This document shows, one piece after another, positions 1,983 through 32,777 of a stretch of DNA of 35,407 nucleotides. A program made the translations under genes and the position numbers. Numbering within the stretch: the first letter of the stretch is position 1; each line of letters opens with the position of its first letter. Source of the DNA: Candidatus Omnitrophota bacterium (GTDB taxonomy: Bacteria; Omnitrophota; Omnitrophia; Omnitrophales; Danuiimicrobiaceae). The stretch spans positions 1 to 35,407 of the forward strand of contig JACOVU010000029.1 of assembly GCA_016177155.1 (NCBI GenBank). The letters are read 5' to 3'. The notes below the pieces were generated by a model, which was not told the origin of the DNA, made no database searches, and saw nothing but the letters and a program-made list of their open reading frames with translations.

Positions 1983-2090
1983 TTATCCCACCACCTGCTT
2001 GTTTGCCACCTGTTGGTGGCAAATCTCTTTCGAGATGTAAGAGTGCGCGCTTAAAAGTGTGCGCTCTTATCAAGCAGGTGGTGGGATTAT
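1983..2090 (-). repeat. CCACCAC-family inverted-repeat element, promoter type, three internal hairpins
   Basis: Perfect 17-bp inverted repeat atcccaccacctgcttg (1985-2001) / caagcaggtggtgggat (2071-2087). ATAA direct repeats on the minus strand. Same layout as 30009-30115. Confidence 0.9.
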
Positions 2091-13116: not shown

Positions 13117-13698
13117 CTATTTCCCCGTTTCAAGCAATTTAAATTCTGATGCCACTACTTTTTTAAAATGATTGCGGCGCGCCTCGGGAGCGTTTAAGGA
13201 TTGTTTGGTCTTCATGCGATCCTTGGACAATTTTTGTACCAAAGCAGAATATTTTGAACCAAATTCCTTTTCTAGTTTTTTCCGAAGCGTCTTGGCCAAA
13301 AGAGGACTTGCCCCTCCTGTTGAAATCGCGATTTGAAGTTTCCCGCGCTGAATGATCGACGGCACAATAAAAGTCGAATGCGTTGGATCATCTACCACAT
13401 TCACAAAAATCCCTTTTTTCTCGCACCATTCAAAAATAGTTCGGTTGAGCGCCTCATCTGAAGTTGCTGCCACCACAAGCTCAGGATTTTCTCCTTGCGG
13501 GATCTGAGATCCAAACCGAATATCGATTTTATTCGCCCGAGCAAACCGCTTAAAAGCCTTTGAACAATCATGGCTGATCACCAAAAGTTTTGCCCCTGCT
13601 TTGATCAGCGTCCGCGCCTTCCGAAGAGCCACGCCACCTCCTCCGAAAAGGAGCACTTTCTTTCCCTGAAGTTTAAGAAAAGCAGGATAGTATTTCAT
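13117..13698 (-). CDS. Precorrin-2 dehydrogenase / sirohydrochlorin ferrochelatase (SirC/Met8/CysG N-terminal family)
   Basis: MKYYPAFL, GGGGVALRK, VNVVDDP...FIVPS, AISTGGASP. True start is ATG 13698; the ORF extension to 13755 is repeat sequence. Confidence 0.93.
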   Translation of the reverse strand: MKYYPAFLKLQGKKVLLFGGGGVALRKARTLIKAGAKLLVISHDCSKAFKRFARANKIDIRFGSQIPQGENPELVVAATSDEALNRTIFEWCEKKGIFVNVVDDPTHSTFIVPSIIQRGKLQIAISTGGASPLLAKTLRKKLEKEFGSKYSALVQKLSKDRMKTKQSLNAPEARRNHFKKVVASEFKLLETGK

Positions 13699-13808
13699 CC
13701 CCCACCACTTTCCAAAAATAAATCTGACAGCAATGCCGTCGTTATTGATGGACAATAAACATTATATTCGTAGTTCAATGCGTAGTATAAAAAGTGGTGG
13801 GGGATCAT
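13695..13808 (-). repeat. CCACCAC-family stop-to-start inverted-repeat element, copy 1
   Basis: Minus strand: ATGA TCCCCCACCACTTT - 79 nt - AAAGTGGTGGGGG ATGA. Confidence 0.92.
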
Positions 13809-15226
13809 ATAAATTTAAGACGGTTCCTCTCTAAGAATTCCTCAAACTCATTTTCCAACGTGAACTTTGGAATCACCCGCAACCCGCTCAACTCTTCCGC
13901 CGCTTCGATCGTTTCCTGATCCACAGGATCAACCATGGCAAGCTCCAGTGCATCATCTTTGATCGTGATCGGAACAACCCGATGATCGCGCACAAACTCC
14001 TCAGTTAAAATGCGGGCGAGGTCTTCGGTTAAAATATGGTTCTTAAGGCTCACATAACCCACTGAGAATTTCGACTCAAGCAGCTTCCCGACTTCACTGC
14101 TCGAAACCGCATTCATCCGAATCAGAACTTGACCGATTCTCTCCCCGGTTTCGACATGACGTTTGACTGCTTGATTGAGTTCTATTTCCGTAATGAGCCC
14201 TGCATCAAGCAACAACTGCCCAAGCGGTTTTGAGGTATCGCGCTTCTCATCGCTGGGTGAAAGCACTTCCAGGGACTCTTGAAGCGAGCTCAAGGGCATT
14301 TCTCGTCGATCGCGAAGATAATGACTTCCAGGTTGCGTCTTAAGATAAGCTTTCACTTCTGCGGCGTCACGAGCAACCTCCGCCATGCTGCGGTACGGCC
14401 GGTACAGATTCGTTACCGCTGCGATCGAAAGACTCATCAAAGGAAAAGAAACAGGAACACCGCTCCTGTTTTTCACGAGGACGGATTTACGTTTTCGGTC
14501 TGCATCCTCATAATGCGTCGGAATAATTCGGTCAAACTCTTGAAGGCAAAGTTGGGCAAAACGAGTTTCGTGATCCGTATCCGTCACCACTACAAAATCA
14601 TCACCTCCAATGTGGCCGAAAAAACTATTCCGATCCGCTTCGCTCAATTCAAGACATCTTGCAATCAATTGAGCCGTATGCCGAATCACTTGATCTCCCC
14701 GTTCAAATCCATATCGATCATTAAAAGATTTAAAGTGGTTGATATCCATATAACAAACCGAGAAAAGTTCACTTCGATCAATGCGTTTTCGAATGTTTTC
14801 TTCAATCGCAATACTACCGGGCAGGTTGGTAAGCGGATTCGCCTGAAGCCGTTCGCGGGCGCGGGTGAGATTGAGTTCAATCCGGAGTTGGAGCGAAAAG
14901 GCATCAAAGGGTTTAATCAAAAAATCGTCAAACCCGCGGTCGCGGCTCAAAACGAGCTCTCTGACTTCATTCTCCTCGGCCAACAACATAATCGGAACGC
15001 CCAGGCCGGTAATGCTCTGCTTCATTTTTTTGGCGAGGTTCACCCCATCCACCTCTTCCATCGTCGTACCCATTAAGACGAGATCGAAGCGAACCTTTTG
15101 AACCAAGCGAATCGCCTCATCGCTATGGGTGGCAATAAATACATCATAATTTCGAGCCAGAAGTCTCGCCTCTAGAAGAGCGAGCGTATCTGAATCTTTC
15201 TCTGCAATTAAAATTTTGTAACTCAT
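13805..15226 (-). CDS. Atypical REC - GGDEF - MshEN/T2SSE_N fusion (putative diguanylate cyclase)
   Basis: REC-like N-terminus; NPLTNLPG, DINHFKSFNDRYG, GHIGGDDF; C-terminal PLGQLLLDAGLIT...ERIGQVLI and LAMVDP. Confidence 0.88.
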   Translation of the reverse strand: MSYKILIAEKDSDTLALLEARLLARNYDVFIATHSDEAIRLVQKVRFDLVLMGTTMEEVDGVNLAKKMKQSITGLGVPIMLLAEENEVRELVLSRDRGFDDFLIKPFDAFSLQLRIELNLTRARERLQANPLTNLPGSIAIEENIRKRIDRSELFSVCYMDINHFKSFNDRYGFERGDQVIRHTAQLIARCLELSEADRNSFFGHIGGDDFVVVTDTDHETRFAQLCLQEFDRIIPTHYEDADRKRKSVLVKNRSGVPVSFPLMSLSIAAVTNLYRPYRSMAEVARDAAEVKAYLKTQPGSHYLRDRREMPLSSLQESLEVLSPSDEKRDTSKPLGQLLLDAGLITEIELNQAVKRHVETGERIGQVLIRMNAVSSSEVGKLLESKFSVGYVSLKNHILTEDLARILTEEFVRDHRVVPITIKDDALELAMVDPVDQETIEAAEELSGLRVIPKFTLENEFEEFLERNRLKFI

Positions 15227-15307
15227 CCCCCACCACTTTTCCTGATTAACTTTTCCAATCTAATCTTAGATCCGCTCACCAAATTGCAAAAAGTGGTGGG
15301 GGATCAT
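15223..15307 (-). repeat. CCACCAC-family stop-to-start inverted-repeat element, copy 2
   Basis: Minus strand: ATGA TCCCCCACCACTTT - 50 nt - AAAGTGGTGGGGG ATGA. Confidence 0.92.
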
Positions 15308-29553: not shown

Positions 29554-29563
29554 AGAAAAAATG

Positions 29564-29884
29564 TTACCGTACTTGAGCGCCTGAAGGAACGTCGCGCTCA
29601 GGAATTATCAAAGTCAACATCGTATCATTACTGGCTGCAAGAAGCATTCCGTTAGACTCAACGCCACGGATGACGGCAGGCTCTAAATTGTTGACCACGA
29701 CGACTTTTTTACCGACTAATTGTTCCGGTTGATAATGTAGGCGAATACCCGCCACAATCTGCTTCTCTACCTCCCCTACCCGAATTTTGAGCACATAAAG
29801 CCGATCGGCATTGGGATGCGGGTTCACCTCTAAAATCTCAGCGACTCGAAAGTCTAAATTCTGAAAGTCCTTTATGGAAACCAT
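29564..29884 (-). CDS. Stand-alone tRNA-binding OB-fold protein (MetRS C-terminal / Trbp111 / CsaA family)
   Basis: DFQNLDFRVAEI, HPNADRL, QIVAGI, NLEP...GVESNGMLLAA. Start at ATG 29884. Confidence 0.9.
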   Translation of the reverse strand: MVSIKDFQNLDFRVAEILEVNPHPNADRLYVLKIRVGEVEKQIVAGIRLHYQPEQLVGKKVVVVNNLEPAVIRGVESNGMLLAASNDTMLTLIIPERDVPSGAQVR

Positions 29885-29985
29885 GCCACACCTCTTAAAT
29901 TTGCGCATTGTAACATAAATCCCCTCATAGGGGAAAATGAATCCAAGTGATTACTGGGAAGGAGGATACAGATATGGGATTTTGC

Positions 29986-30013
29986 TTGATCTTGGCTGGG
30001 AAACTGCTATAAT
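29986..30013 (+). promoter_or_regulatory. Promoter for ino1 (extended -10)
   Basis: TTGATC - 16 nt - TATAAT, with TG one base upstream of the -10 (TGcTATAAT). Confidence 0.65.
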
Positions 30014-30115
30014 CCCACCACTTGTTTGACAAGAACGCGATTTATGAACAAGCGCGTTCTTGTGTCTCTTCGAGATTTCACCCCGCACGGGATGAACAAA
30101 CAGGTGGTGGGATAA
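30009..30115 (+). repeat. CCACCAC-family inverted-repeat element, promoter type, three internal hairpins
   Basis: ATAA-TCCCACCACTTGTTTG ... CAAACAGGTGGTGGG-ATAA; same layout as 1983-2090. Confidence 0.9.
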
Positions 30116-30180
30116 TTCGGCTCTATTCGTTACCACACACTTCTAGAATCAATCTTCTGAAACAAAAAGGGAGTGCACTT

Positions 30181-31281
30181 TTGAGTAAGATTAAAATCGC
30201 CGTTGCTGGCGTCGGCAATTGCGCCGCCTCGCTCATTCAAGGAATCGAGTACTACAAAAAGAACGGAAAAGCAAAACAAGACACCCAAGGGTTAATGAAT
30301 TACGACTTGGGGGGTTACCTACCTGAAGATATCGAGGTCGTCGCCGCTTTCGATATCGATAAACGCAAAGTCGGCGAACGTTTTGATGTTGCGCTCAATG
30401 CAAAACCCAACTGCGTCATGGTCCTTTACAATCATCTGCCCAAAAGTAAGGTGATCGTGCAAATGGGCCACGTTTTAGACGGTGTTTCCGAACACATGGC
30501 TGAGTATCCAGATGACCGTACCTTCCTTGTCGCAAACAAGAAACCCTCTAATGTGGAACAAATCATCCGCGACAGCGGCGCTGAAATCCTTTTAAATTAT
30601 TTGCCTGTTGGCTCTGAAGAAGCGACGAAGTTTTACGCGGAAACTTGCCTCAAGACAGGAGTCAGCTTCATCAACTGTATGCCGGTTTTTATCGTCTCGA
30701 ACCCCCAGTGGGCCAAGCGTTTTGAAGACAAGCGAATCCCTTGTGTCGGAGATGACATTAAAGCGCAGATCGGTGCGACCATTACCCACCGAACGCTCGC
30801 TAAGTTGTTTATAGATCGGGGTGTCAAAATTGACAGAACTTATCAGCTCAACACGGGTGGCAATACGGATTTCCTGAATATGCTTAACCGCAACCGCCTA
30901 AAATCTAAAAAAATCTCAAAAACGGCAGCCGTACAAAGTCAACTCGACGTTCCCCTTGAGGAAGATAACATCCACATTGGCCCTTCGGATTACGTTCCGT
31001 GGCAAAATGACAATAAGGTCTGCTACTTAAGAATTGAAGGCCGAGGATTTGCAGGATTCCCCGTCACTTTGGAATGCAGGCTGTCTGTGGAAGACTCTCC
31101 GAATAGTGCCGGCGTCGCCATTGATGCCATCCGCTGCTGCAGGCTTGCGCGTGACCGTAAGATCGGTGGTCCGCTCATTTCCATTGCAGCTTACTCGATG
31201 AAACATCCTCCCAAACAAATCCATGACACGGAAGCCAAAGAACTCGTCCGGAAGTTTATTCAGGGCACTTGCCAGCGGTAA
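30181..31281 (+). CDS. ino1: Myo-inositol-1-phosphate synthase
   Basis: IAVAGVGNCAASL, NYLPVGSE, GDDIKAQIGAT, YQLNTGGNTDFLNM, DSPNSAG. TTG start at 30181 after GGGAG. Confidence 0.95.
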   Translation: MSKIKIAVAGVGNCAASLIQGIEYYKKNGKAKQDTQGLMNYDLGGYLPEDIEVVAAFDIDKRKVGERFDVALNAKPNCVMVLYNHLPKSKVIVQMGHVLDGVSEHMAEYPDDRTFLVANKKPSNVEQIIRDSGAEILLNYLPVGSEEATKFYAETCLKTGVSFINCMPVFIVSNPQWAKRFEDKRIPCVGDDIKAQIGATITHRTLAKLFIDRGVKIDRTYQLNTGGNTDFLNMLNRNRLKSKKISKTAAVQSQLDVPLEEDNIHIGPSDYVPWQNDNKVCYLRIEGRGFAGFPVTLECRLSVEDSPNSAGVAIDAIRCCRLARDRKIGGPLISIAAYSMKHPPKQIHDTEAKELVRKFIQGTCQR

Positions 31282-32010: not shown

Positions 32011-32727
32011 TCACATTCTCAAGATGTTCCTCGCGTTCCCGCTGAAAACAGGCTCGCGCTTGGAGGATGGAAGTAAATATTCAAACTTTTTGATCTCGAG
32101 CCCCAAGTGGGAATAGGGAATGTCAGAAGCAAATACCACTTTATGCGCTCCCACTTCCCGAAGGATTTGCCCGGTTCGGTAGTAAGAAAGTGTAGAGGTA
32201 TCTAAATAAACGTTTTTAAGCTCTTTCGCGATCTCGATCGCCTCTCGAAATAAATCTTTCCCCGAATGAGCCAGTACAAAAAAAGTCCTGGGATAAGCTT
32301 TAAAAATATGATGCCACTCGCTTGGGTGGCAATTGGGTTCGTGGCCCGTATGGAGTACTACCGCTAATCGCTTTTGGTCAATCGCTTCAAAAAGAGGTTT
32401 CGCTAGGTGGGCATTGAACCGATCCGAACGCGGATGAAGTTTGACCGCCCGAAAGCCTAAGCGGACGGCGTGGTCAATCTCTTCAAAAGAAGCTTTCTTC
32501 TCATTGGGATTAAGTCTGGCGCACCCGATCAAACTCCGCTCGCGTTCAATCACTCGGGCAATCTTCCGGTTCATCCGAGCATAAGCAGGACCGGGACTTG
32601 CTTCATCAATCGGAAATATAACGCTCTTTGCAACCCCAAAACGCCTCATCACGTTCAGCATATCAGAAAGCGTTTGGCGTGCGCCATCGCGTGAATGGCC
32701 CAAGTGGGTGTGGAAATCGATGATCAT
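32011..32727 (-). CDS. Metal-dependent amidohydrolase (Amidohydro_2-like TIM barrel)
   Basis: IDFHTH, AVKLHP, VLHTG, LAHSG, YLDTS, VFASDIPY, GNARNIL. Confidence 0.9.
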   Translation of the reverse strand: MIIDFHTHLGHSRDGARQTLSDMLNVMRRFGVAKSVIFPIDEASPGPAYARMNRKIARVIERERSLIGCARLNPNEKKASFEEIDHAVRLGFRAVKLHPRSDRFNAHLAKPLFEAIDQKRLAVVLHTGHEPNCHPSEWHHIFKAYPRTFFVLAHSGKDLFREAIEIAKELKNVYLDTSTLSYYRTGQILREVGAHKVVFASDIPYSHLGLEIKKFEYLLPSSKREPVFSGNARNILRM

Positions 32728-32777
32728 CCCCCACCACTTTTCAGGTTGATAGATTCAAGAAAGTGGTGGGGGATCAT
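32724..32777 (-). repeat. CCACCAC-family stop-to-start inverted-repeat element, copy 3
   Basis: Minus strand: ATGA TCCCCCACCACTTT - 19 nt - AAAGTGGTGGGGG ATGA. Confidence 0.92.

Follow-up and report, generated by a model that had tools for sequence, protein, structure and literature searches.

The window analysed here is a stretch of 35,407 nt, contig JACOVU010000029.1 of the Candidatus Omnitrophota assembly GCA_016177155.1 (designated as G000; 1.38 Mb, 147 contigs, 86% complete). It carries ino1, which codes for myo-inositol-1-phosphate synthase, and a compact sequence of 100 nt with three hairpins lies at the promoter of this gene. We compared this sequence with its relatives in the same and other genomes, and it is very probably a gene-less copy, resembling a MITE (miniature inverted-repeat transposable element), of a family of small mobile elements of Omnitrophota type, inserted into the conserved -10 box of ino1. 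The features of the locus, in window coordinates, are as follows.

29564..29908, minus strand: divergent upstream gene, tRNA-binding-domain protein (PF01588, E 2.4e-30)
29986..29991, plus strand: -35 hexamer TTGATC of the ino1 promoter, part of the sole sigma-70-like site in a promoter scan of 29850-30250
30005..30013, plus strand: extended -10 element TGcTATAAT, in which TATAAT occupies 30008-30013 and the inserted element begins at the final T (30013)
30010..30012, no strand: left 3-bp target duplication TAA, a direct repeat with 30113-30115
30013..30112, no strand: element, 100 nt, starting with T and ending with A, a class A copy without a gene
30013..30028, no strand: left terminal inverted repeat, which forms the outer stem's 5' arm and pairs with 30097-30112
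30029..30063, no strand: hairpin 1 of the fold, long, 35 nt, ACAAGAACGCG...CGCGTTCTTGT
30064..30076, no strand: hairpin 2 of the fold, small, 13 nt, TCTC-TTC-GAGA
30077..30096, no strand: hairpin 3 of the fold, 20 nt, TTCACCCC...GGGATGAA, with an imperfect stem
30097..30112, no strand: right terminal inverted repeat, which forms the outer stem's 3' arm and pairs with 30013-30028
30108..30116, plus strand: right junction TGgGATAAT, a putative second extended -10 element judged by resemblance, at the native distance from ino1
30113..30115, no strand: right 3-bp target duplication TAA, a direct repeat with 30010-30012
30169..30173, plus strand: Shine-Dalgarno sequence GGGAG of ino1, beyond the element (AGGGAG is common to the orthologues)
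30181..31281, plus strand: ino1, with a TTG start at 30181 (PF01658, E 6.8e-37)

The outer stem of 16 bp encloses three hairpins of 35, 13 and 20 nt (30013-30112). RNA folding of 30008-30120 yielded this long outer stem with its three hairpins at a minimum free energy of -55.4 kcal/mol (z -9.3), which was equalled by 0 of 200 shuffles, and the 100-nt element folded as single-stranded DNA adopted the same structure (-32.7 kcal/mol, z -9.6). An earlier note on this DNA had described a three-hairpin sequence at 30008-30116 that starts inside a TATAAT box. The sequence is present as described and does begin within TATAAT, but the proper unit is 30013-30112, with TAA at either side. When 30020-30200 was folded, the element paired with itself only, and the ribosome-binding region of ino1 was free of pairing with it; according to the folding, an RNA starting near 30020 would still form the junction with an outer stem of 9 bp. 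The scan of 29850-30250 called one promoter only, TTGATC-16 nt-TATAAT with the TG present, and did not call the right junction TGgGATAAT, which is without a -35 hexamer. No terminator-like site was found after the element on the plus strand of this region.

The ino1 promoter was without the element in all four congeners that hold the locus (G002-G005), while a fifth congener, 56% complete, gave no match. At these empty sites, CTTGAT(T), a 16-nt spacer and TGcTATAAT (TGaTATAAT in G005) are followed by the leader, AGGGAG and the ino1 start; the sites read TGCTATAAT, with the leader directly after. CTTG.T.T and TG.TATAAT are invariant in the five orthologous promoters, four of which are element-free. 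The G000 site reads TGCTATAA[T...100 nt...A TAA]TTCGGCTCTATTCG, that is, 103 extra bases bounded by TAA on both sides, and deleting the element with one TAA gives a sequence that aligns with those of the congeners. Because the promoter is conserved in congeners without the element, TATAAT belongs to the host promoter, and the sequence comparison identifies it as the -10 box of the host, older than the element. The same comparison places the insertion within the hexamer at TA/TAA/T, after the split of this lineage from its congeners. Owing to the T at its start and the A at its end, the element recreates TATAAT at the left junction, and this restored hexamer sits behind the unchanged -35 and TG.

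In the contigs of four DNA runs, which hide rare variants, no joint skipped the 103 bases of 30013-30115 as an empty allele would. Single contigs of X1 and X2, which may represent the source sample, span the whole stretch with 1-2 differences, and an X3 contig bridges the filled site (29560-30677) with none. The contig joints at 30028/30029-30097 were other copies of the family that share the ends. As a separate feature of the region, the interval from the upstream gene to the ino1 promoter of G003 (C118, L011) is longer by about 500 nt of hairpin-rich sequence, which is not present in G002 or G004.

The window holds a further copy at a promoter, designated as copy 1, the ino1 element being copy 2.

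1986..2086, no strand: copy 1, 101 nt, with TTA (minus-strand TAA) on both sides, at 1983-1985 and 2087-2089

Copy 1 splits a minus-strand TATAAT (2091-2086) in the promoter of a gene starting near 1947 and, like the ino1 copy, replaces the displaced T by its own first base; the minus strand reads GATTATAA[T...A TAA]TACCC. None of the four congeners carries the element at this site, which is cleanly empty in G005 (GTATTATAAC; minus-strand reading GTTATAATAC). The orthologous site in G004 (C25, L021) has a different insertion in the same -10 region, of about 250 nt, made up of four hairpins, with an 8-bp direct repeat AGTATTAT at its flanks. The two copies have opposite orientations on the plus strand, where the hairpins of copy 1 measure 20/14/34 nt compared with 35/13/20 nt in copy 2. 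The agreement in hairpin order and approximate size that the earlier note saw between the copies accordingly applies to the reading toward the downstream genes, but not to the plus strand. That note also held that hairpins 1 and 3 differ in sequence between the copies, which is true of the short GC hairpin, whereas the long hairpins are homologous. The compensatory change it pointed out, from C-G in copy 1 to T-A in copy 2, was found at columns 14/111 of the alignment, and the outer stem of copy 2 contains a single T.G besides (columns 11/114).

Both copies belong to a repeat family with the ends TCCCACCAC...GTGGTGGGA, which can also be written T-CCCACCAC...GTGGTGGG-A. The window contains 8 occurrences of the end motif with up to 3 mismatches (0.85 expected). 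G000 contains 45 strict copies, 43 of which have identical 3-bp flanks, and about 70 copies in unrelated contexts when one end mismatch is allowed, one of these (C83) resembling an unrelated hairpin. The end variants change in both arms together (CCCATCAC/GTGATGGG and CCCACTAC/GTAGTGGG), and a bulged form also occurs. The target duplication is 3 bp long and nearly always TGA or TAA. For 33 of the 45 strict copies, the start ATG of an open reading frame (ORF) of at least 100 codons is made up of the element's final A and the TG of the duplication; for 21 of the 45, the duplicate at the opposite side serves as stop codon to an ORF with 100 codons or more.

A scan of a genome collection found at least 80 copies in other genomes, mostly labelled Candidatus Omnitrophota; it used a single gap of 66-96 nt and is biased towards that length range, and the spread across taxa is a lower bound. 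Among the matches listed, a few were labelled Planctomycetia, Elusimicrobia, Auribacterota, Nitrospira or Bacteroides, and 72 of 80 had identical 3-bp flanks (TGA/TCA 58, TAA/TTA 11, CGA 1, CAA 1 and TGG 1). The base preceding TGA in these listed matches is A, G or T, giving ATG, GTG and TTG starts, which agrees better with gene starts as the target than with one fixed DNA word. One end-pattern match, on a Bacteroides sp. 51 scaffold (L134), has inverted instead of direct flanks (TATTAATAGC / GCTATTTTAATA) and is probably a longer unrelated palindrome, not a member of the family.

The spread of the family is patchy: the CCCACCAC end type was found in 10 of 41 relatives and the CCCATCAC type in 11 of 41 (reversed-pattern controls, 0), and the copy number of one end type ranges from 1 to 24 among congeners. 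Near-identical copies exist in G000, where pairs are 90-94% identical. In G003, there are about a dozen nearly identical CCCATCAC copies of 131 nt, one of which (C138:51-181) abuts a full-length relative (C138:185-517, described below), and this cluster looks like a recent burst. Taken together, the ino1 copy has terminal inverted repeats, a target duplication, filled and empty sites, and a small non-coding body present in many copies, as MITEs do. A sister class with the ends TCCCCCACCACTTT...AAAGTGGTGGGGGA (five C/G) and TCA duplications is also present in the window, at 13698-13804, 15226-15303 and 32727-32773; each of these three copies lies exactly between the stop of a minus-strand ORF and the ATG of the next ORF, and their interiors are without the three-hairpin form.

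To quantify fold conservation, we aligned 27 class A copies of G000, chosen for the long-small-short order of their fold and all oriented alike. In this alignment, 95.8% of the cells were paired, compared with 80.8% in shuffles and 38-50% in slid controls, and double changes occurred in 19 of 26 pairs, giving 108 doubly changed cells against 33 in shuffles, a value reached by 0 of 500 shuffles. The proposal of the earlier note that structure is conserved over sequence is thus borne out in a larger set. Helix 1, the outer stem, was 100% paired with 7 of 14 pairs doubly changed, and all 10 pairs of helix 2, in hairpin 1, covary. MAFFT aligned hairpins 2 and 3 poorly; the covariation figures cover the outer stem, hairpin 1 and, in hairpin 3, two pairs only, and hairpins 2 and 3 rest on folds of the individual copies compared with shuffles. 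Covariation of terminal repeats alone is expected of any inverted-repeat element, and the informative part is the short hairpins, for which the evidence consists of these folds. Folded without the ends, the interior gave three hairpins in 49 of 53 copies from G000 and, among the matches listed from other genomes, in 63 of 80, with a median z of about -4. The four-way-junction fold is a family-wide property.

G-U pairs account for 11 of the 693 cells of the alignment, and among 25 copies with clean flanks the orientation relative to the host gene was the same in 14 and opposite in 11. Because G-U pairs are few and there is no orientation bias, DNA pairing or symmetric binding sites fit better than a strand-specific RNA, and the constraint on the fold probably acts at the DNA level. 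This bears on the function that the earlier note had implied for the sequence, a structured device of the ino1 leader, and on the related reading of a dedicated cis-regulatory RNA, a structured leader or riboswitch-like four-way junction that would control ino1 as well as the gene downstream of copy 1. A very stable fold, significant covariation, a position between a good promoter and a gene, and the long-small-GC order of both window copies toward the downstream gene are all what such an RNA would present. However, the element is missing from four of four orthologous ino1 leaders, and its roughly 70 copies stand in unrelated contexts, most exactly on start codons, in no fixed orientation (14 versus 11) and with target duplications at their flanks. 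In addition, it has almost no G-U pairs, its fold leaves the ino1 ribosome-binding site untouched, and no Rfam family reached its gathering score in the window, the relaxed hits being at chance level (E 0.32 and 0.37). A cis-regulatory RNA is therefore extremely improbable, and the leader device must be given up, although the tests that the earlier note proposed for it, on covariation and on the -10 box, were both passed; neither could detect mobility.

The association of both window copies with TATAAT, which that note had also reported, is real and proved to be recurrent. G000 has 12 copies with a TAA-type duplication, including one of which the left end alone was detected, and 7 of these lie in TATAAT and one more in GATAAT; four of the eight are preceded by TGn. 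By comparison, TAA lies in TATAAT in 1.0% of cases genome-wide in G000 and in 3.2% outside long ORFs (P ~2e-8). In 6 of the 7 G000 -10 cases examined, the beginning of a long ORF lies 12-68 nt downstream. Among the matches listed from other genomes, 8 of 11 TAA-type copies lie in TATAAT, and several of the -10 copies there have TTGACG, TTGTCA or TTTACA 17 nt upstream. The remaining TAA-type copies are at stop codons or TAATG overlaps. The -10 hexamers are thus a second, self-repairing landing site of the family besides start codons, and this is the new point of the present analysis. Of the -10-type copies, 3 had the same orientation and 1, the GATAAT case, the opposite one, which is too few to interpret.

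Two observations concern the same copies. In G000, C105:937-1033 and C134:204-304 are -10-type insertions whose downstream junction lies 8-9 nt before the ATG of a long ORF; the genes look leaderless, so that the right-junction TGgGATAAT would be needed for their continued expression. The TATAAT copies of G000 and of the matches listed from other genomes (15 in all) all carry the CTG, CTT or CTA variants of the terminal repeat, and the GGAGGTG (CTCC) variant, which is common at start codons, was found in 0 of these 15 (P ~0.04), a weak difference on which we do not rely.

Relatives of full length indicate how such copies might have arisen. Two of them are in G000.

C78:9935-10254 (L027 936-1255): full-length copy, 320 nt, between glyA and nrdR, with a 108-codon ORF in the loop of the long hairpin
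C70:13907-14235 (L180): full-length copy, whose only gene codes for a GIY-YIG nuclease

The C78 ORF opens at the host ATG of the left junction, passes through both terminal repeats and closes at the TGA of the right duplication; the C70 frame likewise extends from a host ATG through both repeats to the duplicated TGA. Its product matched GIY-YIG (PF01541, E 8.5e-15) and no other family, and its nearest solved sequences are the UPF0213 protein BH0048 (1zg2, E 4e-10) followed by SLX1 (E 0.008). Altogether, we found five full-length relatives of 320-330 nt in four genomes (C78 and C70 of G000, and one each in G003, G001 and G012). All five have the same layout of ends, CAAGAGCGCGC arm, ORF, GCGCGCTCTTG arm, small hairpin, GC hairpin and ends, and hairpin 1 of the ino1 copy (30029-30063) is the counterpart of the inverted arms that surround the gene. 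The ORFs, 108-111 aa, are intact, and their proteins are 59-67% identical to the first one with invariant motif residues. TGA stands on both sides of four of the five copies. The end variant of the full-length copy is also the commoner one among the short copies of its genome (22 CCCATCAC versus 10 CCCACCAC in G003; 14 CCCACCAC versus 1 CCCATCAC in G001), and G000 holds full-length copies of both end types. On these sequences, the short copies look like gene-less derivatives of GIY-YIG elements.

Terminal inverted repeats together with a 3-bp T-N-A duplication are the product of IS5- or PIF-Harbinger-like transposases, and the family resembles these systems in both respects. The element could accordingly be an ordinary MITE of a DDE transposase of this kind that was not assembled, with the GIY-YIG gene as a passenger lodged in hairpin 1. 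The incompleteness of G000 would accommodate such an enzyme, and G011, which is rich in copies, holds 11 PF01609 matches. However, PF01609, PF13359 and PF00665 had 0 matches in G000 (86% complete), and PF01609 had none in four copy-carrying congeners either (G001, G002, G003 and G005, the last being 93% complete), so that, unlike in IS5 and PIF-Harbinger, no DDE transposase was found in these five genomes. End pairs 320-6000 nt apart in G000 consisted only of the two GIY-YIG copies and chance pairs, with no long pair around a transposase, and none of the 3 of G011's 11 PF01609 loci that were checked has an end motif. Furthermore, the GIY-YIG ORF is intact and at the same position in all five full-length copies of four genomes, with its frame running through both ends. 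We consequently regard a DDE-driven MITE as unlikely and a GIY-YIG element as the more likely source of the short copies.

The family resembles repetitive extragenic palindromic (REP) sequences and bacterial interspersed mosaic elements (BIMEs) with their RAYT proteins, which are intergenic repeats that form hairpins and are presumably recognised in a folded, single-stranded form. REPs have neither terminal inverted repeats around a multi-hairpin body nor a target duplication, and the single Y1_Tnp match of G000 (C16), in contrast to what is seen with REP/BIME, is without nearby element ends, there being no end motif within its 2.9-kb locus. Another likeness is to the Correia repeat-enclosed elements (CREE) of Neisseria, which are also non-coding palindromic repeats of about 100-150 nt with terminal repeats, short duplications and many copies near genes. 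The target duplication of CREE is TA, whereas here it is 3 bp (TGA or TAA). The present elements also differ from CREE in their interior, a three-hairpin four-way junction, in their coding relatives, which carry the GIY-YIG nuclease only and no transposase, and in that they split and restore an existing -10 hexamer or start codon and bring no new promoter. A further likeness is that the junctions touch promoter signals: CREE are reported to give rise to a promoter at one end or at both (PMC2649163), and promoters are listed in several MITEs in a 2024 review (PMC10969869), in which GIY, start codon and TATAAT do not occur.

The Ssn system offers an enzymatic parallel in its protein. According to the available text of Chenal et al. 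(Nat Commun 2025, PMC11893778), Ssn is a single-domain GIY-YIG protein whose gene is bracketed by NTS/SRM inverted repeats that are also present as many gene-less copies; the authors compare the hairpin-ssnA-hairpin layout to an insertion sequence, and Ssn nucleases cut next to their hairpins in folded single-stranded DNA. Likewise, in the present family the hairpin-1 arms and the terminal repeats stand on both sides of the GIY-YIG gene (108-111 aa, compared with roughly 94-110 aa for proteins of this type and about 94 aa for Ssn). What distinguishes the present family is its true terminal inverted repeats and 3-bp target duplications, which are not described for SRM in the same part of that paper. 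We tried the published degenerate SRM motif as a candidate for these elements and rejected it: its 7 matches in G000 equal the shuffled count of 4-7, and 0 of the 7 are inside elements. Hairpins very similar to the published Neisseria NTS/SRM consensus (TGTCATTCCCGCG...GCGGGAATCC) do occur outside the elements, in G000 at C37:333, C37:4710, C70:3948, C88:12427 and C88:16936 and in G005 upstream of ino1 (L014), and they may represent a second GIY-YIG-associated repeat in the same genomes.

These parallels raise the question of whether the repeat is retained by the host, as a domesticated sequence of the REP/BIME or Ssn-hairpin kind that serves mRNA stabilisation, translational coupling or recombination control. 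The copies lie precisely at gene punctuation and rebuild its signals, the structure is maintained in diverged copies, and domestication has been proposed for the hairpin-ssnA-hairpin unit in the available text of Chenal et al. (2025, PMC11893778). On the other hand, both window sites are filled in some congeners and not in others, one end type ranges from 1 to 24 copies per congener, and near-identical copies have appeared in bursts (the 90-94% pairs of G000 and the 131-nt cluster of G003). The Ssn-related motif is absent from the elements (0 of its 7 genome matches), and the sole Y1-transposase match of G000 is not beside element ends. Domestication is thus quite improbable, and a mobile family remains the preferred reading.

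Several points weigh against this preferred reading. Mobility was deduced from genome comparisons. GIY-YIG enzymes are not known to join DNA strands, and insertion sequences often fail to assemble, so that a transposase could be missing from G000 (86%, 147 contigs). The full-length copy of G012 is without matching flanks. Copy 2 is diverged, its nearest neighbour in the 27-copy set being 62% identical, and it may have lost mobility, in view of this divergence, the T.G in its outer stem and the imperfect hairpin 3. As for the -10 niche, two pairs of the cases from other genomes look orthologous, which reduces the independent events to about 6 of 9 among the matches listed, and the TATAAT enrichment cannot separate a target preference from the survival of harmless insertions.

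The events at ino1 can be pictured as follows. The comparison shows that the element landed in the -10 hexamer and duplicated TAA, its first T restoring TATAAT. Transcription would then start from the left TATAAT near 30020, adding a self-contained folded leader of about 100 nt, or from the right junction TGgGATAAT with the native leader; by either route, ino1 would continue to be transcribed. The fold may be kept because the element's own nuclease recognises folded DNA for mobilisation, and not for the sake of ino1. In the model that we prefer, which follows the example of the Ssn nucleases, the GIY-YIG protein would act on the folded element and mobilise the short copies in trans. Extending this picture, we tentatively suggest, with somewhat less than even confidence, that the family is a self-repairing transposon of gene punctuation: an element of 320-330 bp whose sole gene codes for a UPF0213/SLX1-like GIY-YIG nuclease that would recognise its own four-way junction. 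Its T...A termini and T-R-A duplication would rebuild NTG starts, TGA/TAA stops and TATAAT, and its terminal repeat would double as a ribosome-binding site (GGAGGTG) at starts and as the TGn of an extended -10 (TGgGATAAT) at promoters, so that even leaderless genes might survive an insertion into their promoter.

In titles and abstracts of the literature, we found no paper on a prokaryotic miniature or terminal-inverted-repeat element bearing GIY-YIG, nor did the literature searched contain the combination seen here, namely coding relatives with GIY-YIG only, copies almost only on starts, stops and -10 hexamers, and end bases that restore the signal. A stable, covarying four-way junction behind a perfect promoter mimics a riboswitch, yet here it is a mobile insertion, and such elements will mislead searches for structured RNAs in Omnitrophota and similar genomes. 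The -10 niche gives a clear, testable promoter prediction, and the family provides a natural series of promoters with and without an insertion of about 100 nt at a fixed position.

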